From the UHGV virus genome UHGV-0196030: 11,550 nt of DNA; one strand, given 5' to 3'. Positions 958 through 11,550 of this stretch are shown one piece after another. The position numbers were made by a program, and so were the translations under genes. The stretch's first letter is position 1; each line of letters opens with the position of its first letter. The stretch comes from a virus. The notes beneath the pieces were generated by a model. The model did no database searches, had not been told where the DNA came from, and worked only from the letters and a program-made list of their open reading frames with translations.

Positions 958-2067
958 TTGCTGGTCCATCCCAATGGCAGCAAATACTGGCGATTCCGGT
1001 ACTGGATAGACAAGAAAGAGCGATTACAGGCCATCGGGGTATATCCGCTGATTAGCCTCAAGGAAGCCCGCAAACGCGCCACAGAGAGCCGTTTACTGAT
1101 AGCCCAGGGAATTGACCCAATGGAAGAAGCACGCAAGGAGAAAGCCATTGATGCGCTCAACATGGCGGCAAGTTTTAAGACCGTGGCGGAGGACTGGCTG
1201 ACTACTAGGGTGAGCGGTTGGTCAGAGTCCTACACGAAACAGGTCAGGACGGCGCTGAAAAATGACGTTTACCCCGTGCTGGGTAAGCGTTCAATCGTCG
1301 ATATAACCGCCCGTGATGTTCTGGCATTGCTTCAGAAGAAAGAGCGCACCGCGCCGGAGGCGGCCCATAAGTTACGCCAGCGTATCGGGGAGATCTTCAA
1401 ATTTGCCGTTATCACCGAACTGGTTAACCGGAATCCGGTTGCAGATCTGGATACGGCATTGAAAGCCAGACGCCCAGGCCATAACGCATGGATACAAATT
1501 AGTGAAATTCCGGCCTTCTACAAAGCCCTTGAGAGAGCCGGGAGCGTACAGATTCAGACGGCAATACGCTTGCTTATATTGACGGCATTAAGAACGGCAG
1601 AATTGCGAAAAATGCGGTGGGAATGGGTAGATCTGAGCACGGCAACAATCACCCTACCCGCTGAAGTCATGAAGGCCCGCCGACCGCACGTAGTCCCGTT
1701 ATCCCGGCAAGCGGTCGAGCTATTACAGGACCAGTTTACCCGCAGCGGGTACAGTGCTTTCGTCTTTCCGGGCCGATTCATGGATAAGCCATTGTCAGCA
1801 AGTGCCATCCTTAAAGCCCTGGAGCGTATCGGGTACAAGTCGATCGCCACTGGTCATGGTTGGCGGACCACCTTTTCAACGGCGCTTAATGAGTCTGGCA
1901 GATACTCACCAGACTGGATCGAAATCCAATTGGCCCACGTTCCGAAAGGTGTGCGCGGTGTATATAACCAGGCCGCCTACCTGAAGCAACGGCGGGTAAT
2001 GATGCAGGACTACGCGGACGCTATTGTTCTGATATTGGCTGGTGACGGTAATCCGCTGGAACCGTGA
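958..2067 (+). CDS. intZ: P4-family tyrosine integrase (site-specific recombinase); ORF shown from the first in-frame TTG, but N-terminal homology continues upstream to about 868
   Basis: N-terminal arm-binding-type sequence ...KDKPYKLTDSLTPGLFLLVHPNGSKYWRFRYWIDKKERLQAIGVYPLISLKEARKRATESRLL... and C-terminal catalytic region ...HGWRTTFSTALNESGRYSPDWIEIQLAHVPKGVRGVYNQAAYLKQRRVMMQDYADAI (H-x-x-R and catalytic Tyr as in P4 Int). Symbol given by locus analogy to K-12 CPZ-55, not by sequence identity check. Confidence 0.88.
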   Translation: MLVHPNGSKYWRFRYWIDKKERLQAIGVYPLISLKEARKRATESRLLIAQGIDPMEEARKEKAIDALNMAASFKTVAEDWLTTRVSGWSESYTKQVRTALKNDVYPVLGKRSIVDITARDVLALLQKKERTAPEAAHKLRQRIGEIFKFAVITELVNRNPVADLDTALKARRPGHNAWIQISEIPAFYKALERAGSVQIQTAIRLLILTALRTAELRKMRWEWVDLSTATITLPAEVMKARRPHVVPLSRQAVELLQDQFTRSGYSAFVFPGRFMDKPLSASAILKALERIGYKSIATGHGWRTTFSTALNESGRYSPDWIEIQLAHVPKGVRGVYNQAAYLKQRRVMMQDYADAIVLILAGDGNPLEP

Positions 2068-2074
2068 ACTATAA

Positions 2075-2100
2075 GGCCGGATTCGTCCGGCTTTTCTTTC
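2075..2100 (+). terminator. Rho-independent terminator after the integrase gene
   Basis: Stem GCCGGA (2076..2081) / TCCGGC (2086..2091), loop TTCG, followed by TTTTCTTTC, 8 nt after the TGA stop at 2065..2067. Confidence 0.6.
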
Positions 2101-2104
2101 GCTA

Positions 2105-2135
2105 ATTATTCCATTATTCCAATTAAGTGGAATAA
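2105..2135. promoter_or_regulatory. Operator-like site: tandem ATTATTCC x2 followed by a perfect 8-bp inverted repeat TTATTCCA-n6-TGGAATAA
   Basis: ATTATTCC at 2105..2112 and 2113..2120. Inverted-repeat arms at 2114..2121 and 2128..2135 with a 6-bp spacer, in an AT-rich intergenic region upstream of the 2277 CDS. Confidence 0.35.
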
Positions 2136-2214
2136 ATTATTCAATATCAAGAACTTAAATCCATGTTTGCAACGAAAGATCCAGAGTTCGAAAATAGGAT
2201 CAACACAAATAAAA

Positions 2215-2244
2215 GCCCCCGGCATGTTGCAGCATTCCGGGGGC
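2215..2244 (+). promoter_or_regulatory. Stable stem-loop in the putative 5' leader of the 2277 CDS
   Basis: 8-bp GC stem GCCCCCGG (2215..2222) / CCGGGGGC (2237..2244) with a 14-nt loop, about 30 nt upstream of the AAGGAG Shine-Dalgarno. Confidence 0.3.
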
Positions 2245-2276
2245 GGTATGAGAAACAAGCTAAAGGAGAATTTCTC

Positions 2277-2786
2277 ATGTCTGATATGCTAGCAGTAGAA
2301 CAAGAAACAAACAATGATGTTCGTCAATTTTTAAATAAAATTAACGAGTTACGGAATAAAGCACCCAAAAACGAAGAGACTAAACACGAAGAACACACGC
2401 CAGATCATTACGAGGCAAAACAGCAGGAGCAAGCCTGGCGTGGCAACCTGCGCTACCTGGATACATTAAACCGACTTGATGAGGTATTGCCTCGCAAACT
2501 GTACGAAAGGTGGGAGAAAGAACATACAGTCAACGACGAGGCCGTGCTACGCGCCCTTTGCTACTTTGCTGGTACTGGCAAAAACTCACAGTTGGGATGG
2601 TGCAGGGTTGGCAGGGGAACAATCGACAAGCGAGCCAGGCTATCAAAAAACACGGTTAAAAAATGCCTCGATCGTCTGGTCCACCACTTCAAACTGGTTG
2701 AGCGTACTGAAGGCTATATACCCGGATCGGCAGAAAGGGAATGCAACGAGTACCAGCTATTATTCAAGCCGTACAACATGAAATAA
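2277..2786 (+). CDS. Hypothetical protein, 169 aa, with a C-terminal winged-helix-like DNA-binding region (possible replication initiator or regulator)
   Basis: Strong SD AAGGAG (2263..2268) 8 nt before the ATG at 2277; the ORF-track start at 2163 has no SD. C-terminal segment GWCRVGRGTIDKRARLSKNTVKKCLDRLVHHFKLVERTEG looks like a winged helix. Followed by a terminator and an iteron cluster. Confidence 0.55.
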   Translation: MSDMLAVEQETNNDVRQFLNKINELRNKAPKNEETKHEEHTPDHYEAKQQEQAWRGNLRYLDTLNRLDEVLPRKLYERWEKEHTVNDEAVLRALCYFAGTGKNSQLGWCRVGRGTIDKRARLSKNTVKKCLDRLVHHFKLVERTEGYIPGSAERECNEYQLLFKPYNMK

Positions 2787-2794
2787 CGGAATCA

Positions 2795-2817
2795 GGCGGG
2801 CAATGTTCCCGCCTTTT
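2795..2817 (+). terminator. Rho-independent terminator after the 2277..2786 CDS
   Basis: Stem GGCGGG (2795..2800) / CCCGCC (2808..2813), loop CAATGTT, then TTTTCTTT. Confidence 0.65.
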
Positions 2818-2840
2818 CTTTGCCTTAATTCCATGAATTC

Positions 2841-2964
2841 AGGTGGGTCAAAAGTTGCCGTTAAGGTGGGTCAAAAGTTGCCGAGTAAGAATTCTACTAT
2901 TAAGAATTCTAGGCGACGGGAGTTTTTTAGCCTCCCGGTCGGTCATAGAGAGTCGCCTAGAGTT
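2841..2964. repeat. Iteron-like repeat cluster: two identical 20-bp direct repeats, two TAAGAATTCT repeats and a nested palindrome
   Basis: AGGTGGGTCAAAAGTTGCCG at 2841..2860 and 2864..2883, identical, 23 bp centre to centre. TAAGAATTCT at 2886..2895 and 2901..2910. Inverted repeat CTAGGCGAC (2909..2917) / GTCGCCTAG (2952..2960) enclosing hairpin CGGGAG-n9-CTCCCG. Confidence 0.6.
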
Positions 2965-3793
2965 AAAACAGAAGAATTGTTTCGCCGCCTGATAGGTCGG
3001 CTGGTTGCGAGCATTAACCATGCTGATTAGCGCAATCATTTCCAGCAAGCTGGAAACGCCCATTCACTCACGCACAACCTGAACAGCAGACCAACAGAAC
3101 ATCATGGCGATTCGTTCATGGGTAGCGCGGTATATCTCAAATGTGACGCCTCTTGTTGCTGGACCTTCGGAAAACACCATGGAGACGAAAGTATTCAATC
3201 TGGTCTGGCAGCAGGGAGAGCTTCGCTTCGCTCGTCTCCTGGGGCCAATGCTCAATGAAACGACGTAAGGCACGGAGCGCTCACCATAGGCAGACACATA
3301 AACATCTGAGAGCGCACCTTCTATCGCGCTACGCGCTCAATAAAAACCAACGACACCGCCATCCTGCCTGACCGATGTTTTTAACCAGCGTATACAGAGA
3401 AACAGACAATAGCATGAAATCAGCGTATATCCAGGTGCAGACGGCACTATCACACAACGCACAGCAGGCTTAAGTGACCACTCAGGAAACTTTATCCCCG
3501 CCACCGACTAACGCAAACCGTCCTGACCGCGCCAAATTCGAAAGGAATGCTACCTTAAACGCGATTAACACACATAAGCGCCACACTTACTTACCTGAAA
3601 ACTTCACAGCGTCACAGCGCGTTTTAGACACGTTAAAATCGATGCGATTTCATTAAATTTTTTTCACTCGCCTGAATGGTGGCAATCAGGACTGATTGCA
3701 ACATTGCCCCGCCTCGATACTGAGCGCATAATAAATACATACATTAAGCGGAAACGTCATTAACAGATTTGGAAAAACAATGGGTTACACATC

Positions 3794-4414
3794 ATGCGCA
3801 TATCAAAGCAGCAACGCCAAATCCTCGACTATCTGGCAGAAAACGAATCAATCACAGCACGCCAGGCGGCAGATCTCGTTTATGGCGGCAACGTTACCCG
3901 CGTACAGGTCGATGCAGCCCGCCGTTCACTGATGGCGCTGGTCAGCAATGGGCTAATCATGAAACAAGGCCGCGCTTTCGTAGCTGAAAGACATATCAAT
4001 CACGCTTATAGCCAGGACGTTGAAGAGTTGCGCCGTCAGATCCTTTGGGTATTCAGCAAAGAGGGGCAGGACTATCTCATTTCTGAGCGTCCAAATTACG
4101 CCGCCAAAGAGTTAACAGTAAGCGGATTGTCGTGCGCACTGGATTATCTTGTCGGTGAAGGTTGCGTTACTTACAAGCAGCTATGGCACGCCCTGAACAC
4201 GCTTGTAGAAGATGGTTTACTCATTGCCACGCGTGAGAATATCGAATACTGGATAATGCCGCGTTCAGGTCGCCGCAATCATGCGCGGTATATTTCAGGC
4301 AACAAATACAGAACGCCTGACTTTAATCCGACACAGGAAGATCGGGACCGTGCCGAAATGATGTGCAGGGAACGGGAGAAAAGATTCATGGACAAGTTGT
4401 TTTCGATGCGGTGA
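3794..4414 (+). CDS. Hypothetical protein, 206 aa, with an N-terminal winged-helix/HTH-like region (putative DNA-binding protein)
   Basis: Long ORF with protein-like composition. N-terminal ISKQQRQILDYLAENESITARQAADLVYGG...RSLMALVSNGLIMKQGR resembles MarR/winged-helix recognition helices. Weak SD. A strong terminator follows directly. Confidence 0.5.
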   Translation: MRISKQQRQILDYLAENESITARQAADLVYGGNVTRVQVDAARRSLMALVSNGLIMKQGRAFVAERHINHAYSQDVEELRRQILWVFSKEGQDYLISERPNYAAKELTVSGLSCALDYLVGEGCVTYKQLWHALNTLVEDGLLIATRENIEYWIMPRSGRRNHARYISGNKYRTPDFNPTQEDRDRAEMMCREREKRFMDKLFSMR

Positions 4415-4420
4415 ACACAA

Positions 4421-4443
4421 GCGGGCGCAATGCCCGTTTTTTA
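4421..4443 (+). terminator. Rho-independent terminator after the 3794..4414 CDS
   Basis: Stem CGGGC (4422..4426) / GCCCG (4432..4436), loop GCAAT, followed by T6 (4437..4442), 7 nt after the TGA stop. Confidence 0.7.
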
Positions 4444-4583
4444 TTGCCTTATTCCACGTCAGACGAATCAATCTAATCACACCTGAGCAAATGCATTGCC
4501 AAAAATTTAGGCTGTCAGAATGCGTTTTAGCGCGTTTTAAGGGCATCGAATTTTAATTAATTTTGATGCGGTGATTTGCGGGC

Positions 4584-4671
4584 AAAAAAAATCCAGCCGG
4601 AGAGGGCTGGAAATAGAGACATATCGTTGTAGTTATTAACAGATCACATTTTGAGGCTGAGTATTTACCTC
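4584..4671 (-). ncRNA. Putative small antisense RNA (~88 nt) with its own promoter and intrinsic terminator; contains a 14-nt complement of the HNH gene ribosome-binding region
   Basis: Minus-strand promoter-like hexamers: -35 TTGCAC (complement of 4701..4706), 17-bp spacer, -10 GATAAT (complement of 4678..4683). Minus-strand terminator: stem 4592..4598 / 4605..4611 followed by U8 (complement of A8 at 4584..4591). No ORF longer than about 19 codons inside. Contains the complement of 4643..4656, which is identical to 5090..5103 at the HNH Shine-Dalgarno. Confidence 0.3.
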
Positions 4672-4755
4672 ACTAATATTATCGCGCCGTTATGGTGATT
4701 GTGCAAATCATCTCTTCCAATCACAAAAACGTCATATTCGACAATGAAGCCGTGT

Positions 4756-4784
4756 TTGAACACGTAGGACAATGGGAATAAAAT
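4756..4784 (+). promoter_or_regulatory. Candidate sigma70 promoter for the alpA-HNH operon
   Basis: -35 TTGAAC (4756..4761), 17-bp spacer, -10 TAAAAT (4779..4784). Predicted start near 4791, about 90 nt upstream of alpA. Confidence 0.4.
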
Positions 4785-4823
4785 AATTACATAGGGTTTT
4801 TCTCTTGGCCTATTTTTTCATTC

Positions 4824-4868
4824 AGCGGCGGTTGTTTTTCTCCATATTTCCAGCCGCCGCTCCTTTTC
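4824..4868 (+). promoter_or_regulatory. Leader hairpin with a short U-tract upstream of alpA (possible attenuator)
   Basis: Stem AGCGGCGG (4824..4831) / CCGCCGCT (4854..4861), 22-nt loop, followed by CCTTTTCG, then the alpA SD GAGG at 4872..4875. Confidence 0.3.
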
Positions 4869-4883
4869 GAAGAGGTGATGAAA

Positions 4884-5075
4884 ATGAACGACTTTCCCGA
4901 ATTGATAAGCTGCGAACAAGTCGCTCGACTTTTTTGTGTAAGCAAGCGCACGATTCTCAGGTGGGTAGATAAAATCCCCGGCTTTCCAATCCCTGTAAGT
5001 CCTGAAGGAACCCCGCTCCGCTTTATTCGCAGCGAAATTCTCGAGTATTTCTACAGAGGGCACAACCATAAATAA
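4884..5075 (+). CDS. alpA: AlpA-family phage transcriptional regulator / excisionase-like HTH protein (about 63 aa)
   Basis: Small protein with the AlpA-like pattern ...LISCEQVARLFCVSKRTILRWVDKIPGFPIPVSPEGTPLRFIRSEILEYF. SD GAGG at 4872..4875, 8 nt before the ATG at 4884; in-frame GTG 4875 and ATG 4878 sit too close to the SD. Symbol is family-level. Confidence 0.7.
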   Translation: MNDFPELISCEQVARLFCVSKRTILRWVDKIPGFPIPVSPEGTPLRFIRSEILEYFYRGHNHK

Positions 5076-5111
5076 CGAAATAAAATCCCATCACATTTTG
5101 AGGTAAACATC

Positions 5112-5507
5112 ATGACCAATATCGAAAGATTAGAACGCTGTGCCGATATTATGCGGCGCAGATGGATTTATGACCCTGAAGCGGGTTTATTGTTTAGCCG
5201 TGAAACAAAAGACGTTATCAAAGGCAGCATGACCAATAAAGGGCATTTGGTTGTAACGGTACATGAAGGTAAATTCAAAGTGACACTCACCTATCAGAAA
5301 GCCTGCTATGTATACACATACGGCGCTTATGACGAGACATTATATGAAGTGCACCACGTTAATTTGAACAAACAGGATAACCGCATCAAGAATATTCGCC
5401 TGATGCCGAAAGAAAAGCACCGCCGGATACATAAAAACGTCCGCAAACTTATTCGGCTGGGCCACACACAATGGCTTCAACCGCAATTAATTGAACAATC
5501 ACTATAA
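5112..5507 (+). CDS. HNH endonuclease (HNH_3-type), 131 aa
   Basis: Motif YEVHHVNLNKQDNRIKNIRLMPKEKHRRIH matches the H-H-x-N...N-R...N-(I/L)-R signature of phage HNH_3 nucleases. SD GAGG at 5100..5103, 8 nt before the ATG. Confidence 0.6.
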   Translation: MTNIERLERCADIMRRRWIYDPEAGLLFSRETKDVIKGSMTNKGHLVVTVHEGKFKVTLTYQKACYVYTYGAYDETLYEVHHVNLNKQDNRIKNIRLMPKEKHRRIHKNVRKLIRLGHTQWLQPQLIEQSL

Positions 5508-5524
5508 ACACAGGAGTAAATACC

Positions 5525-5788
5525 ATGCATTCATTAGACAGTTATTTTCAGCGCACGACAGCCCCTAAATCAGCTGCCCAGGAACGCCGTGAGGAATTCC
5601 ATGAGAAAGTGATGCGTTCTGCTGATTATATTGCGGACAAGTTCGTGGAAACGGTTCGTCCACTTGTTGATGAAGTAGCTGATAAACTTCAGTCTGAAAT
5701 GCCGGAAGATATGGAAGGCACTGCAAAGCGGCGACTCATTTGCGAATTAAGTCGTCGTTTTGGCGTGTCAATAAGCGCTTTTAAATAA
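5525..5788 (+). CDS. Hypothetical protein, 87 aa
   Basis: Strong SD AGGAG (5512..5516) 8 nt before the ATG. Tightly packed between the HNH gene and the next ORF. Charged, protein-like composition. Confidence 0.5.
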   Translation: MHSLDSYFQRTTAPKSAAQERREEFHEKVMRSADYIADKFVETVRPLVDEVADKLQSEMPEDMEGTAKRRLICELSRRFGVSISAFK

Positions 5789-5810
5789 TCGAAAAAAGGG
5801 GGGAAAGATA

Positions 5811-6353
5811 ATGGACGCATTTGAGGTACTGGCAAATAAAGGCGCGGAACTGGTAGCACAGCGTGATAAAACCGCCAACGAAGGGGAACGCGCACTGCTA
5901 AATAGACAGATTAAAGCGATCCGTATGGCCCAGTTTAAATTAATCAGCAATGAAGTTATCGAAACAATTAAACCGCAGATCCCACAAATCGTTGCTGACG
6001 CTATTAAAGCCGCCGGACTGGAGAAACGCATTGCCGGGCTAAAAACGAACGCAGAGAAAATGGAGATGCACAAACAGAGCGGTGCTCCGAATCCCGATGA
6101 GTACTTCTCACCGGATGTTGAGTTTATGGCGCAGGTTGAGGAACGTCTGGGTAGCTGTCTCACCGAGGAACAGCGTCGCTATTTTGATGGAGTGGATAGT
6201 TCGGCAGGTATTGACCTGAACTCGTATTTCGGTCGTGAAATTGAGCATTTTGATGCCGCCCCGTCTATGCCGGAGCCAGAAACAGAAATGGCCGCCGATC
6301 CTGAAGCTGAGCAACGGAAACGCGTATTCAATGCGATAGGGATTCGGTACTGA
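5811..6353 (+). CDS. Hypothetical protein, 180 aa, acidic C-terminus
   Basis: G-rich SD (AAGGGGGG, 5796..5803) before the ATG at 5811, which lies 22 nt after the previous stop. Codon usage looks coding. No motif recognised. Confidence 0.5.
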   Translation: MDAFEVLANKGAELVAQRDKTANEGERALLNRQIKAIRMAQFKLISNEVIETIKPQIPQIVADAIKAAGLEKRIAGLKTNAEKMEMHKQSGAPNPDEYFSPDVEFMAQVEERLGSCLTEEQRRYFDGVDSSAGIDLNSYFGREIEHFDAAPSMPEPETEMAADPEAEQRKRVFNAIGIRY

Positions 6354-6404
6354 TCGGATAAAAGAAAGCCGGGAATTACCCCGGCTGACTTAACAATGTG
6401 ACCA

Positions 6405-6779
6405 ATGAACAAATCGGACAAGACAAACAGGATAAGCAGTCTCGAAACAATGTTCGGGAACTATATTAGCACAAGTCCGGAGAAAATCATCATGTTGGCA
6501 CTACGCATCATGCAGGGCATCGCTAAGACCCTCGCAGAACATGTCTTAGACCTGAAACATTCGCCACTGAGCAAACAGGCCATGAAGCGCCAAACGCTTC
6601 GTCTGTGGGCTGAATATTCGCTTGGAACTATCAATAAGCTCATCAATATGAAGTCGAAAGATAATGGCAGTGTCCATGAGTGTAACAGCGAAGAAAAGGA
6701 ATTTGTGAAACGCCTGAAGTTAATCCGCGCCGATATTCACTCACAACTGGCCTCTTGTGGTTGCGATATTGATGACTAA
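6405..6779 (+). CDS. Hypothetical protein (124 aa from ATG 6405; a better-supported start at ATG 6492 would give 95 aa)
   Basis: ATG 6405 has no SD. The in-frame ATG at 6492 is preceded by GGAGA (6479..6483) at 8-nt spacing. The C-terminal region is the same either way. Confidence 0.45.
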   Translation: MNKSDKTNRISSLETMFGNYISTSPEKIIMLALRIMQGIAKTLAEHVLDLKHSPLSKQAMKRQTLRLWAEYSLGTINKLINMKSKDNGSVHECNSEEKEFVKRLKLIRADIHSQLASCGCDIDD

Positions 6780-6808
6780 CAGCGTGCTAACGGGGGGTTA
6801 ATCGCCCC

Positions 6809-6858
6809 TTAGCGATAGCTTAGCTAACTGTTAGTGAGCCTTAGCGACATCTTAGCGA
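6809..6858. repeat. Five helically phased iterons TTAG(C/T)(G/T)A immediately upstream of the terS-like gene (candidate packaging or protein-binding array)
   Basis: TTAGCGA 6809, TTAGCTA 6820, TTAGTGA 6831, TTAGCGA 6841, TTAGCGA 6852: spacing 11, 11, 10, 11 bp. Preceded by a G-rich hairpin-like GGGGGG-TTAAT-CGCCCC at 6792..6808. Confidence 0.55.
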
Positions 6859-6878
6859 CAGTTTAACCGGGGGTAAAT

Positions 6879-7283
6879 GTGGAGACTGAAGATAAAGAAA
6901 TCAATAACTTGCCTGTAAATGGCAACAGGTTAGCGAGAAAAAGGGCCAAATATACCATCGCGCTGGCGGAAGAAATTTGTTTGTTGGTAGCGGAAGGCCA
7001 TAGCCTACGTGAGATCGCGAAGATGCCAGACATGCCATCGTTACGCACTTTAATGCGGTGGCAATATGAACATCCAGATTTCAGAGAGCACATCGGTATT
7101 TTTAAGTGGATTCACGCCCAGGACGCAGCAGAGCAAGCTGTTGAAGCTATCAGAGATGTAGATCTGGAAGCGGAAGACGCGCCACTGAAATTAAAACAGG
7201 CTGAGGCATTAGCCCGCACTTTGTTAGGTCGTGCCAAATTGCTTGAGAGCAAAAACAATCCATTCAACGGGGGTGACAAATGA
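6879..7283 (+). CDS. Phage terminase small subunit (TerS)-like protein, 134 aa, GTG start
   Basis: N-terminal HTH region KYTIALAEEICLLVAEGHSLREIAKMPDMPSLRTLMRWQYEHPDFREHI matches the pattern I recall for TerS-family proteins (Y-T-x-E-L-A-x-x-I-C...G-x-S-L-R-x-I...M-P-S-x-x-T-x-x-R-W). G-rich SD at 6868..6872. Confidence 0.55.
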   Translation: METEDKEINNLPVNGNRLARKRAKYTIALAEEICLLVAEGHSLREIAKMPDMPSLRTLMRWQYEHPDFREHIGIFKWIHAQDAAEQAVEAIRDVDLEAEDAPLKLKQAEALARTLLGRAKLLESKNNPFNGGDK

Positions 7284-7789
7284 GCTTTATGGGTAAACAC
7301 AAGACTGGTGGTAAAGACGACGCACAGGGCTTGTTTAAGGCCGGGAAAAAGGCATCTTTAACGCCGGAAGAAAAAGATAGACAACTACAGCTTAAGCCAT
7401 TCAGCCAGTGGACAAAGCAGGATATCGCGATGTGGCGAGCCGTTAATATTGAACGCTGCCAGGAAGACGTAGACGACGGACTGATGGAAGATTTCGAACT
7501 GGACGATCTGATTAATTGTTGGGCCTTCGAGATCGTCGATGATGCGCTTATCCGTACCCGTACCGCGCCGCCGTGTGAGGAAATGATGCTGGGACTGATG
7601 AAGCCGACTACGGATCTGGTTGTTGGTTACTGTCAGATTGATGGCCTTGATAGCCTTGCCGCCGCCGATACAACCGACTCAATGGAACAAGCCGCACGCC
7701 AGCAACGGAAGATTGAACTGCAACGACGCCTACACCATGAGCGCAACGTACCAGGGCAAGAACTGGAAACCATCCCGCGCCGCCAGTAA
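7280..7789 (+). CDS. Hypothetical protein, 169 aa, translationally coupled to the terS-like gene
   Basis: ATG at 7280 overlaps the terS-like TGA stop (ATGA overlap at 7280..7283). GGGGG (7269..7273) serves as SD. Acidic, Cys-containing protein with no recognised motif. Confidence 0.5.
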   Translation: MSFMGKHKTGGKDDAQGLFKAGKKASLTPEEKDRQLQLKPFSQWTKQDIAMWRAVNIERCQEDVDDGLMEDFELDDLINCWAFEIVDDALIRTRTAPPCEEMMLGLMKPTTDLVVGYCQIDGLDSLAAADTTDSMEQAARQQRKIELQRRLHHERNVPGQELETIPRRQ

Positions 7790-7815
7790 TTTTCGGACAA
7801 GCGGGCGCGCAGCCA

Positions 7816-7841
7816 ACGCCAGGGGCATCCAGACTGGCGGA
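7816..7841 (+). repeat. Hairpin element ACGCCAGGGG-CAGACTGGCGGA, copy 1 (copy 2 at 9976..9999)
   Basis: Stem CGCCAG / CTGGCG conserved in both copies; the loops differ by a 2-nt indel. Each copy lies 10-27 nt after a stop codon (7789 and 9966). Confidence 0.45.
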
Positions 7842-8120
7842 ATATATCAATAGTGCGCATTAGATACATTATGTGAAAAACGACATGAGTATATATCAGT
7901 ACTGATTTTACTGGAAAAACTTGATTTTCAGTATCAATCCCAAAGAAGTATGGCTAATGCAGCTTTATAAGCAATTGATTCTATTAAGCGATGTTTTTTG
8001 TGATTGGTTGAAGCAAACCGGAATACGAAGACAGTGAAGCGGCAATAAACTGTTTCAATGTGAAATTATCAGAGTAAACAACAATTTTGGAGGTGTCCGC
8101 ACAACGCGGATAGCAATATC

Positions 8121-9966
8121 ATGAGTGGAAATCTTGGGACCATTTACTATGAGGTGGACGCCCGCACGGGTAAGCTACTGATGGCACAAGAAGAAGCGAA
8201 TCAGGCTTTTGATGCCATTGAGCGTGGCGCAAAACGTGCTGATAACGGCGTCAAAAAACTGAATACGCAGATGACCAAAACGTCTGCCGCAGTAAAATCA
8301 AATTTCTCATTTGCAATCAAAAACGCATCCTACCAGATAGCAGACCTTGCTACACAACTTCAGATGGGCGGTAATGCCATCCAGGTCTTTGCCGTTCAAG
8401 GGGCGCAGCTTGTCGCTGCATTTGGTACTGGCGGTGCGGTCATGGGTGCGGTCATGGCTATTGGCGGGGCAATTGCCAACAGCCTTACGGATAACATGGA
8501 TGACGCCACGGATAGAAAAATACATTGATGCGCTACTCCGCTACAGCAACGAGGTGCTAACAGCAGAAGAGCGTCAAACGGCGTTAAACGAGGCACTGAA
8601 TGCTGGGGCGTCTGCGGCAGCAATTGCCACTGGCGAAATGCTGATTAAACAGGAGCAGATCAAGCAAGAGAAGCTAAAAGGCAATGAGAACGCTGCGCTT
8701 GATATGGCGCTGGCTGAGGGCAAGTTAACGAAGGCGGATCACGATAGGCTTGTCCAGATGCGAGAAGAAACAAAGGAATTGGAGGAGAACAAACGCAAGG
8801 AAGAAGAGAACGCCAGGGAGAAAGAACGAGCAGCCAAACAGGCAGAAAGCGCGGCGAAACAGGCGGCGAAACAGGCGCAACGCGAACTTGAACAGCTTCA
8901 GAAACGCGGGCAAGGTGTAGCTGACAAGTACAACGTAGAGGGCGCAGCACAGCGTAAACTAAAAGAAGACCAGGAAGCGCTAAATGCAGCAATGGAAGCT
9001 GGCAAAATCAGCACAGAACAATATAACGCAGCGTGGGCCGGACTCCTGAGAACGGAGGCGCAACGCAAACAGCAAGCCGGATGGGATAATCTTGTCAGCC
9101 GGGAAGATAAGCTAAAAGGCCGTGTTGACCCAATCCAGCAGGTGATGAACGAATGGAATGTTCGCAAGCAAATGATGCTCGATTTAGGCGTCACTGAGGC
9201 AACCATGCGGCAAGCAGAGATCGACCACAAAGAACGAATTCTTAACCTTCAGTGGCAGCAATGGCAGGCGCAAAGCGATACTAACGCGCTTGTAGGTAAC
9301 ATGATTGATGGCCTCGCTTCCGGTGCTGGTAGCGCATTTACCGGACTGCTTAACGGATCTCAATCGTTCCAGGAATCACTTGCTAACATCGGAACGACCA
9401 TTATCAACCAGGTTGTTGGAAGCCTTGCGCAGATGGGGGCGGAATACGTTAAACAGCTTGTTATGGGTGAGGTTGCGCAGAAATCAGCCTCCGCATCAGC
9501 TACTGCAACGGCAGCGGCAACAGGCGCATCAATCGCATCATCAATGGCCCCAGCAGCAGCGGCGACAGCAACCGCGACAATGGGTACGGCCCCGATGGTG
9601 GCGATGTCTGCGATGTCGGCATTAATGACTGGCATTACAAGCCTATTTGGCGGACGTCGCTACAACGGCGGCGCGGTTAATGGCGGCAATATGTATCGAG
9701 TCGGTGAAAACAAAGTACCTGAACTATTCCAGACCAATAACGGACGGCAGTACATGATTCCGGGTGAGAATGGTCGCATCATTCCTGGTCGTGATATTGG
9801 TGGCGGTAACGTTAGCATAAACGCGCCTATAACCGTTTACCCACAAAACGGTTGGACCGAACAGGATAGCAAGGCATTGCAGCAGACGATTGAGAATACA
9901 GCGATGCGGTTGATGCAGAGAGAATCAACCAGGCCGGGCGGAATGCTCCAGGGTCGCCGCCGTTAA
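8121..9966 (+). pseudogene. Lambda gpH-like tail tape-measure gene, split by a frameshift near 8516..8528 into 8121..8528 and a second frame running to 9966
   Basis: N-terminal part (...YQIADLATQLQMGGNAIQVFAVQGAQLVAAFGTGGAVMGAVMAIGGAIANSL) resembles the lambda H region FTDVATQLAGGQSPWLILLQQGGQV. Downstream frame has coiled-coil KEEENAREKERAAKQAESAAKQAAKQAQRELEQLQKRG and a Gly/Ala/Thr-rich C-terminus ending GGMLQGRRR (lambda H ends GGLFSGGGR). The two frames are offset by +1, with an A5 run at 8516..8520 just before the frame-0 stop. No other tail genes are present. Confidence 0.6.
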
Positions 9967-10136
9967 CCAAATCCCACGCCAGGGGAACAGACTGGCGGAC
10001 CTTCAAAGACGGTCGCACACCGTGTTTAACATAATTTATTGTTTTTTGCTTGCTCTTATTATTGCAGCCGTTAGAGTTGGCGTGGCAGTTTTTCACCTGT
10101 TTCGCGTGTTGCTGTGTTTTTGGGGAAGAAAAACAA

Positions 10137-10232
10137 ATGAGAAGGCTTATATACCTGGTATTTATGCTATTTGCTATCGGGCAAGCCATAATTTTTATCA
10201 CAATGCTGATCTGTCTGATGCTCTTTGGTTAA
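10137..10232 (+). CDS. Small hydrophobic peptide, 31 aa (MRRLIYLVFMLFAIGQAIIFITMLICLMLFG): candidate small membrane protein or type I toxin-like peptide
   Basis: SD GGGGAAG (10122..10128) 8 nt before the ATG at 10137. Single predicted transmembrane helix after an N-terminal RR. The stop is followed within 10 nt by an intrinsic terminator. Confidence 0.4.
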   Translation: MRRLIYLVFMLFAIGQAIIFITMLICLMLFG

Positions 10233-10240
10233 CTCCACCA

Positions 10241-10260
10241 GGACCCGCGACGGGTTTTTA
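10241..10260 (+). terminator. Rho-independent terminator after the small hydrophobic ORF
   Basis: Stem ACCCG (10243..10247) / CGGGT (10251..10255), loop CGA, followed by TTTTT. Confidence 0.55.
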
Positions 10261-10431
10261 TACCATCATTATTAAATCTATTAATAATCATCAAACCATA
10301 ATTAGCACAACTTATAATCGAGCAAAAATCACACAACCTTGATAAGTTGAGCTAATGGCTATATGTTTTTCTGATGAAATCCTAATGGCGAAAACTTGCG
10401 ACGATACCGAAAAAACCGCGAAAATTGAAGT

Positions 10432-10541
10432 GTTCTTTCTTTTTTTGTTTTTTATTTTTTTATTTTCTCTTTTTCTTCTCTTTCCGGTTCTCTTCTTTTT
10501 CTGGTTTTGGTTTTTTCCTTTTTTATTTTTATTCTTTCTTC
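10432..10541. repeat. Polypyrimidine (T/C-rich) low-complexity tract of about 110 bp; polypurine on the minus strand
   Basis: GTTCTTTCTTTTTTTGTTTTTTATTTTTTTATTTTCTCTTTTTCTTCTCTTTCCGGTTCTCTTCTTTTTCTGGTTTTGGTTTTTTCCTTTTTTATTTTTATTCTTTCTTC; strongly pyrimidine-biased, with only scattered purines. Confidence 0.7.
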
Positions 10542-10687
10542 AGGGTTGTGCTAAAACACACCAAAACATTTTCGCCACAAAAGCGTTAATTTCATCCTGC
10601 CAGACCATTCACTTTCACCGGATACACAGCCGGATATATTCCCACTAACACCCCACCACCCAGCGCCACGCCTGATAACTACCGTAT

Positions 10688-10720: not shown

Positions 10721-11550
10721 CGGCACAACCGATCCGCCAAAAAGAGGCGTACCAATGTCGATATAGTCCCCCGCGCGGACAATCACTTCGTCAATGACTG
10801 CCAACGGGAGTTGTTGTAGCTGTGGGCGCAACAACATGCCCAGAGCTTTACCAAAGTCCTGCCCGGCCACCACCAGCAGGGGATGCGGATTCGGAAAACG
10901 CGCGACGAAATCGACCAGCGCGTTGATGACCGTCAGTACCGCGGCGTAACGCACAGGCAGCGAGGCGGGAAGCGCCAGCACGTACGCGTCAGTTTTGGGA
11001 TCAAGATCCAGCTGAAGCAGCGCCTGTTGCCAGGCACTCACCAGATCCGTTTCATCAATCGGGATCGCCACCGGCAAATTGCGCAGCGGCAGTTGTACGC
11101 CCTCCAGCCAGATTGTGCTGCCAGAGAGCGAAAGGGTATGTGCACCCGCGCCAATCACCGTGGCGCGTACGGTTTGCGCCGGAAACTGCACATTCATCTC
11201 ACGCAGGCGCGGATGGTCATGCAGCGCCGTTGCCAGAAGTGGGCCAATATCGGCAAAACAGAACGGGTCGGCGGGCTGGTGGCGATAACATTCGCCCACG
11301 CCTCCAGAAAGCGTAATGATTTCGGGCGTAACACCTGCGGGCAGCAAACCGGTTTGCATCAATGCCTGCGCGAGCGGCGAAAGCGTTCCGTCAATCACTT
11401 CGACAATCAGCGCCGCCATCCGCCGGGTAACCTGCACCAGCTGCGCGCCGGTCAGCGAACGGGCGTCAGTGCCTGCACCGAAGCACTCATCCACAATCAT
11501 CTGCCCCGGTTTATGAGCGTAAACCACGCGCCCGTGGCTGTCGGTTTCCA
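10688..11550 (-). CDS. eutA: Ethanolamine utilisation protein EutA (ethanolamine ammonia-lyase reactivase), C-terminal ~287 codons; gene continues past the window end
   Basis: Minus-strand frame open from the window end to the stop at 10688..10690, ending ...GTPLFGGSVVPVTVKSLAFPS. Lies directly upstream of eutB in operon orientation, as in the eut operon order eutA then eutB. Confidence 0.85.
   Translation of the reverse strand, partial: ETDSHGRVVYAHKPGQMIVDECFGAGTDARSLTGAQLVQVTRRMAALIVEVIDGTLSPLAQALMQTGLLPAGVTPEIITLSGGVGECYRHQPADPFCFADIGPLLATALHDHPRLREMNVQFPAQTVRATVIGAGAHTLSLSGSTIWLEGVQLPLRNLPVAIPIDETDLVSAWQQALLQLDLDPKTDAYVLALPASLPVRYAAVLTVINALVDFVARFPNPHPLLVVAGQDFGKALGMLLRPQLQQLPLAVIDEVIVRAGDYIDIGTPLFGGSVVPVTVKSLAFPS

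Follow-up and report, generated by a model that had tools for sequence, protein, structure and literature searches.

A dif-like core with a palindrome at fixed distance in two families of satellite-like islands of E. coli: a candidate regulated Xer site

The dif site has an 11+6+11 architecture in which XerC occupies the left arm and XerD the right (PMC2731167, PMC5357621), and Xer core sites in general have a central region of 6-8 bp between the arms (PMC5357621). The cer site of ColE1 and the psi site of pSC101 are Xer cores on mobile replicons with extra DNA for accessory proteins, consisting of about 180 bp of accessory sequence bound by ArgR/PepA or ArcA/PepA (PMC5357621). IMEX elements (CTXphi, VGJphi, and the satellite TLCphi, whose activator is XafT) make use of host XerCD through a dif-like site that they carry (PMC6744903, PMC9226527, PMC5357621), and the pdif modules of Acinetobacter are Xer-type sites that border exchangeable gene cassettes (PMC7399989). 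Chromosomes, plasmids, and integrase-less IMEX elements are the settings in which Xer sites are known. Phage and prophage repressor operators form a separate class, that of short palindromes to which HTH dimers bind, with outer half-sites in noncoding DNA upstream of genes. Here, we describe a module of approximately 55 bp that combines a dif-like core with a 12-bp palindrome and that is common to two unrelated families of satellite-like islands in E. coli. A literature search, whose incomplete coverage leaves novelty unproven, returned no description of the spacer or of an Xer-type site in these islands.

The DNA analyzed (the window) is a stretch of 11,550 nucleotides from the virus genome UHGV-0196030. 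It ends in eutA, as identified with Pfam, and is 99.9% identical to E. coli MB19, in which the element is flanked by eutB and eutA, a locus known to harbor the cryptic prophage CPZ-55 (PMC6379469). The gene order of the island is integrase, HNH endonuclease (5112-5507), TerS-like gene (6879-7283), hypothetical gene, spacer, and tape-measure-like gene. The island spans 958-10650, has no capsid, portal, or TerL gene, and looks like a phage satellite that brings its own tape measure. The original prediction had called the gene after the spacer a tape-measure remnant. The intact 790-aa allele of MB19 matches PHROG 1538 (tail length tape measure), and the window gene has a single 524-bp internal deletion relative to MB19 (L001 9727-10250; window approximately 8513-8515) that shifts the frame, which explains the two overlapping tape-measure ORFs. 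Among phages, the temperate mEp021 group has the closest tape-measure proteins.

A previously unnoticed dif-like core, AGTGCGCATTA-GATACA-TTATGTGAAAA (7852-7879), was found 15 bp upstream of the palindrome. Compared with E. coli dif, 18 of the 22 arm positions match and the centre has the canonical 6 bp. By chance, such a match with a 6-bp centre is expected with a probability of 0.0013 in a random sequence the size of the window and of 0.00025 in one the size of the spacer. All 30 related copies that retain the core scored 17-19 of 22, with one site per island and a centre of 6 bp in every case, and almost no other site scoring at least 16 of 22 was present in the 470 kb of sequence scanned. 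The centres of the copies read GATACA, CGTACA, GATTCA, GATCTA, GAGTCA, or CAGCTA. Variable positions amounted to 6 of 22 in the arms versus 5 of 6 in the centre (Fisher p = 0.022), and those in the arms were divided into two in the XerD arm and four in the XerC arm, so that the XerD arm is the better conserved. The same pattern of constrained arms, free centre, and better conserved XerD arm has been described for dif sites (PMC2731167). At positions 1, 24, and 28, the latter two in the XerD arm, where the island sites depart from dif, variation has also been reported among real dif sites (PMC2731167). The majority XerC arm of the island family in the window (family 1), AGTGCGCATAA, is identical to the XerC arm of Hahella dif, and chromosomal dif of Vibrio has the same AGTGCG-type arm (both sequences from PMC2731167). 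In a BLAST search of plasmids with the module, only the first 29 nt, which are the dif-like part, matched, at unannotated sites on large Vibrio replicons. The coordinates of the features are listed in Table 1.

Table 1. Features of the window in and around the module
Feature	Position	Strand	Remarks
XerC-type arm AGTGCGCATTA	7852..7862	+	9/11 match to dif left arm GGTGCGCATAA; only positions 7-10 vary among copies
Central (crossover) region GATACA, 6 bp	7863..7868	+	5/6 positions variable among copies
XerD-type arm TTATGTGAAAA	7869..7879	+	9/11 match to dif right arm TTATGTTAAAT; 10/11 in family 2
Spacer of fixed 15-bp length, variable sequence	7880..7894	+	15 bp in 30/30 copies having the core; 10/15 positions vary
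12-bp palindrome ATCAGTACTGAT	7895..7906	.	Direct sequence check; 2/12 positions variable
Predicted RNA hairpin TACTGGAAA / TTTTCAGTA, 7-nt loop	7909..7933	+	Helix 5 of the consensus fold (7909-7917 with 7925-7933)
Remaining conserved noncoding leader	7934..8088	+	More conserved than the following tape-measure codons
Shine-Dalgarno GGAGG 8089-8093, hairpin TCCGC-ACAAC-GCGGA 8096-8110, ATG 8121-8123	8089..8123	+
Tape-measure-like gene, disrupted	8121..9966	+	First ORF is Pfam TMP_2
One-mismatch palindrome copy in 8+2+8 inverted repeat GCAATCAG-GA-CTGATTGC	3679-3696		Before ORF 3794-4414; in two island types only

The palindrome itself had been noted before, and both its position and its identity with its own reverse complement were exact. 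Considered alone, it is statistically ordinary. Approximately 2.7-3.4 perfect 12-bp palindromes are expected in a window-sized sequence of the same composition, two were seen, and the chance of one inside the 331-bp spacer is about 0.1. A longer, perfect 14-bp palindrome, GCAAACCGGTTTGC, is located within the eutA coding sequence (11344-11357), indicating that such palindromes arise by chance. It is the comparison with relatives that lifts the palindrome at 7895-7906 above this level. It is kept at the same place in 32 related copies (26 from family 1 and 6 from family 2, many of them closely related, so that the effective sample is smaller than 32), being perfect in 13, altered by a single C-to-T change in 16, by two changes in 1, and by a 1-bp deletion in 2. 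The 26 family-1 copies are mostly imperfect, with 7 reading ATCAGTACTGAT, 16 reading ATCAGTATTGAT with the C-to-T change at 7902, 1 reading ATCGGTATTGAT, and 2 from one lineage carrying the deletion. In family 2, all six sampled copies are perfect and the flanks are variable. Five of the six pairs of the dyad hold in the 16 copies with one change, and the outer ATCA/TGAT half-sites are unchanged except in two lineages. Variable positions number 2 of 12 in the palindrome versus 10 of 15 in the adjoining spacer (Fisher p = 0.019). The caution that a lone 12-bp palindrome can occur by chance applies to its count in the window, but its conservation argues against pure chance.

The fixed spacing of 15 bp, together with a palindrome that is better conserved than the sequence between, indicates that the conserved unit consists of the core, 15 bp, and the palindrome (7852-7906). 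In the CPZ-55-type island at eutA/eutB, this module opens a 270-bp conserved noncoding block before the tape-measure gene. The gene content upstream differs among islands right up to the module, and the left edge of the block is sharp, at about 7852. In two islands, GF31 and L022, homology to the other islands starts at the border between the centre and the XerD arm (the 3' border of the centre), so that the XerC arm and the centre are missing and the palindrome and leader are kept. These two share the same upstream sequence and were counted as one event. The break fits a junction at the crossover region. Since GF31 and L022 keep the palindrome and leader in this state, the palindrome may also act independently of the core.

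A sensitive search revealed that the opening 57 nt of the block, with the palindrome as their last part, recur at approximately 81% identity in an unrelated island family (family 2). Of 5426 E. coli genomes, 434 have the noncoding region of this family and 83 the family-1 block. Family-2 islands are integrated at a DUF72 gene near yecN, at ymdF-wrbA, and near yciI, and encode a serine recombinase, a Dam-like methylase, HTH proteins, HNH nucleases (including AP2-HNH), a tape measure, and a Dit-like tail protein. Proteins common to both families are essentially lacking, except for a weak 75-aa HTH match (E = 7e-7) that is absent from the island in the window. In family 2, 0.5-1.1 kb separate the module from the next gene on the + strand, and the tape-measure gene is about 6 kb away. 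A perfect palindrome in family 2, the near absence of common proteins, and the lack of an RNA signal there point to a DNA-level element and a factor acting in trans. Beyond these two families, the core pattern was absent from 185,579 species-representative genomes, a protein-based scan for wider relatives also returned none, and an N-terminal protein search for them returned only fragments. The family-2 islands (L029-L031 and L033-L035, e.g. L030 8551-17100) are themselves uncharacterised, and the 1-1.9 kb at their left end are unannotated and repeat-rich.

Like chromosomal dif (GGTGCGCATAA-TGTATA-TTATGTTAAAT), the module core has two 11-bp arms around a 6-bp centre, and 17-19 of the 22 arm positions match. 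However, dif is a single site at the replication terminus beside hipA, whereas the module core is inside islands at eutA/eutB or elsewhere and differs in the sequence of its centre. Genuine E. coli dif adjoins hipA in 5220 of 5426 genomes and lacks an adjacent palindrome, and on this ground we rejected the palindrome as part of a native dif locus. The accessory sequence of cer and psi is on the XerC side. In the islands, the role of accessory element might fall to a single 12-bp palindrome located 15 bp past the XerD arm, the sequences 5' of the XerC arm are unrelated among family-1 islands, and the conserved DNA is on the XerD side, an arrangement that differs from that of cer and psi. IMEX, one of which is a phage satellite, resemble the islands in being mobile and in having a dif-like site, but they are integrase-less and located at dif, whereas the islands have their own IntZ-type or serine recombinase and are situated away from dif. 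The pdif modules are flanked by two sites; no partner Xer site that would define a cassette was found in the islands, each of which has its single site.

We tentatively favor the reading that the module is an XerC/XerD site whose fixed palindrome binds a dimeric accessory factor, a proposal built on the sequences, their spacing, their conservation, and their distribution. The proximal half of the module would serve as a dif-like core for the host tyrosine recombinases XerC and XerD. The palindrome, as the distal half held exactly 15 bp beyond the XerD arm, would most likely be bound by a dimeric accessory protein that sets when, or in which direction, the Xer reaction runs. Since no proteins are common to the two families that carry the module, the host or a helper phage would probably provide this protein in trans. 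Inspection by eye did not identify the palindrome as a binding site of ArgR or ArcA, and Pfam scans of the islands detected no XafT-like (DUF3653) protein. Because the islands possess their own integrases (IntZ-type tyrosine or serine recombinases), their need for Xer is not obvious. One plausible use would be multimer resolution of the excised, replicating island, and another would be exchange of the segment left of the module, where gene content and defence cargo differ between islands. A bolder version, which we regard as doubtful, is that the module represents a new kind of regulated Xer site in tail-gene-carrying satellites, in which a host or helper dimeric factor licenses XerCD away from the terminus to resolve multimers or swap cargo. 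If true, an Xer-type site with a palindrome at fixed distance in integrase-bearing islands would be a new use of the host dimer-resolution machinery. The 55-bp module would then also offer a concrete handle on two widespread and uncharacterised island families with phage tail-tip genes and defence cargo.

The palindrome had originally been proposed as the operator of a dimeric regulator or as a restriction/recognition site, and had been regarded as minor. The restriction site does not agree with the relatives, as the central AGTACT (ScaI) reads AGTATT in 16 of 26 family-1 copies. The operator proposal has partial support, insofar as the palindrome is better kept than its flanks and recurs in a second family, as would be expected of a conserved recognition element; a classical operator was not supported. 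As a transcriptional operator, the palindrome would be bound by a host- or helper-encoded dimeric repressor or activator that controls transcription to the right, which in family 1 would concern the tape-measure gene and in family 2 the entire gene array, and the dif-like neighbor would be unrelated or linked only historically. We consider this rather unlikely. The dyad with its outer half-sites ATCA...TGAT resembles phage and prophage repressor operators, and in both families it is upstream of, and in the same orientation as, the downstream genes. L022 and GF31 keep it without the Xer core, and since their upstream genes are on the opposite strand, the tape-measure promoter must be within or just upstream of the retained block. 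However, no sigma-70-like promoter overlaps the palindrome on the + strand, where the only promoter-like site between 7600 and 8300 is inside the gene, and the distance from the palindrome to the downstream gene is 215 bp in family 1 versus 0.5-1.1 kb in family 2. Apart from the weak 75-aa HTH match, no regulator is common to the families, and no cognate regulator was found, although one may be supplied in trans. A similar motif was also missing from the regulatory regions of the closest phages, and a k-mer comparison with four regions of phages mEp021 and mEp010 gave only background sharing. Finally, an operator leaves the fixed 15-bp link to the dif-like core unexplained.

Operators are often repeated, and the search for the palindrome elsewhere in the islands, suggested with the original prediction, revealed no recurrence at other conserved places. 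We rejected a repeated operator motif, as the near-copy at 3685 is limited to two island types (Table 1) and the near-copy at 6343 is coding sequence, namely the 3' end of a conserved ORF.

It is also conceivable, although we judge it unlikely, that the palindrome has no function of its own and was conserved as part of a recently spread, recombining block, its symmetry being accidental. The expectation of 12-bp palindromes at this window size, the imperfect state of most family-1 copies, and the relatedness of the copies to one another, with a whole-block identity floor of about 84%, would be in line with this. Nevertheless, the palindrome is conserved significantly better than the adjacent 15 bp, and it is perfect in family 2, where the module around it is only about 81% identical and homology soon fades past it.

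The spacer had been described as an AT-rich intergenic region at 7850..8120. Its GC content is indeed lower (0.40 in 7801-8100 versus 0.47-0.55 around it), but the full intergenic gap measures 331 bp (7790-8120), from the stop of the ORF at 7280-7789 to the ATG at 8121. Homologous spacers are present in 73-83 of 5426 complete E. coli genomes, where they are never annotated, and in one viral contig and 15 metagenome contigs. Across nine loci, invariant columns made up 69% of the spacer (7852-8120) and 82% of its core (7955-8084), compared with 47-72% at codon positions 1-2 and 16-20% at codon position 3 of the tape-measure gene. The seemingly empty gap of CPZ-55-type islands is thus the most constrained sequence of the region, a feature that the earlier reading had missed along with the dif-like core.

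The + strand of 7852-8135 folds at -69.6 kcal/mol, compared with -57.1 kcal/mol for shuffled sequences (z = -2.8), and the - strand gives z = +0.9. For 22 distinct copies (7852-8123), the consensus fold energy gave z = -3.6 on the + strand against column-shuffled alignments (0/200) and z = -1.7 on the - strand. The hairpin at 7909-7933 is closed by C-G in 14 sequences and by U-A in 6, which represents a compensatory change, and G-C/G-U alternation was seen at several other pairs. The inverted repeat TTGAT-n7-ATCAA reported near the palindrome at 7920-7936 exists, but one base further on, at 7921-7937, and it is not conserved in relatives; the loop of this hairpin contains its first arm. Further downstream, GGAGG is 27 nt from the ATG with a 5-bp hairpin between, and in L015 the stem reads CCCGA...TCGGG in place of TCCGC/GCGGA, so that the structure is kept and the sequence changed. 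This arrangement looks like a split ribosome-binding site joined by a hairpin. Given the + strand fold signal and the compensatory helices, the approximately 210 bp downstream of the palindrome are best interpreted as a structured leader at the 5' end of the tape-measure mRNA, separate from the module. On these sequence-based grounds, the gap would combine two or more functional layers, including the DNA module and the structured mRNA leader. Rfam returned only far sub-threshold eukaryotic matches in the spacer of the window and none in the family-2 region. A hidden small gene was rejected, as several relatives have a TGA within the 38-aa ORF at 7921-8037 and conserved ORFs are lacking.

The significantly structured + strand raises the possibility that the palindrome acts at the RNA level within the leader, either as a hairpin AUCA-GUAY-UGAU or through base pairing between its right half (GUAYUG) and CAGUGC at the 5' edge of the block. 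The C/T change at 7902 would be neutral in both structures, being in a loop or in a G-C/G-U pair (GC in 6 and GU in 15 sequences), and the A-to-G change in L018 gives a G-U pair. Neither helix shows a compensatory double change, however, and such changes are confined to the helices at 7909-7933 and 8096-8110. The family-2 region with the same module lacks the + strand structure signal (z = -1.0), the 4-bp hairpin is weak, and the partner CAGUGC is the XerC arm itself. An RNA-level role is accordingly quite improbable in our view.

A packaging (cos or pac) site for a helper-phage terminase, with the palindrome as the nicking site, is very improbable: cos nicking sites such as lambda cosN are partly symmetric, and HNH endonuclease genes occur in both families and a TerS-like gene in family 1, but neither the module nor the palindrome in context is present in any of 50,697 phage records, the module does not adjoin the HNH or TerS genes, the TerS-like gene is missing from some islands in which the module is kept, and the match to dif would be unexplained. 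More generally, mimicry of phage DNA (cos, pac, or late promoter/qut) was dropped, as the 286-bp block has no match in the same records. A lambda-type nut site (boxA + boxB) for the N-like antiterminator Gp17 of mEp021-group phages was considered because these phages have the closest tape-measure proteins. Its boxA-like part, which is GCGTGTAA in L004 and L008, is not conserved, the supposed 'GAAAA loop' corresponds to the XerD arm, and inspection of the mEp021 genome showed nut sites that differ in appearance from the island sequence, so that this reading was rejected. A LexA box was rejected as well, since CTG-N9-CAG in family 2 has the wrong spacing and family 1 lacks it.

Searches of the phage records with module queries of 63 and 76 nt gave chance-level matches only, apart from dif-like sites. 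One such site, AGTACGTATAA-CGTCTA-TTATGTTAAAT, is carried by the lytic E. coli siphophage Seurat (KM236243.1 49297-49324; L032 2503-2530) and its relatives. It scores 19 of 22 with a perfect XerD arm and is located in a divergent intergenic region without a palindrome.

In mEp021-group phages, the tape-measure gene is likewise preceded by a noncoding gap, of approximately 250 bp, with an 11-bp inverted repeat TATACAAAATG...CATTTTGTATA (L025 6918-6960 in phage mEp021; L026). Homology between this gap and the island spacer was not detectable. The downstream tape-measure gene has a different N-terminus in L009, L012, and L022, and the L009 copy is Pfam TMP_3. In L009, a viral contig, the module and this TMP_3-type gene (86-1535) follow a secretin gene and a terminator-like hairpin instead of island genes. 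Defence systems on the opposite strand were observed directly upstream of the leader, namely ABC-3C in L022 (5919-10222) and, in GF31 (L036 1090-8544), type I restriction-modification together with an M48 peptidase. These observations suggest a cargo hotspot just upstream of the leader in these islands.
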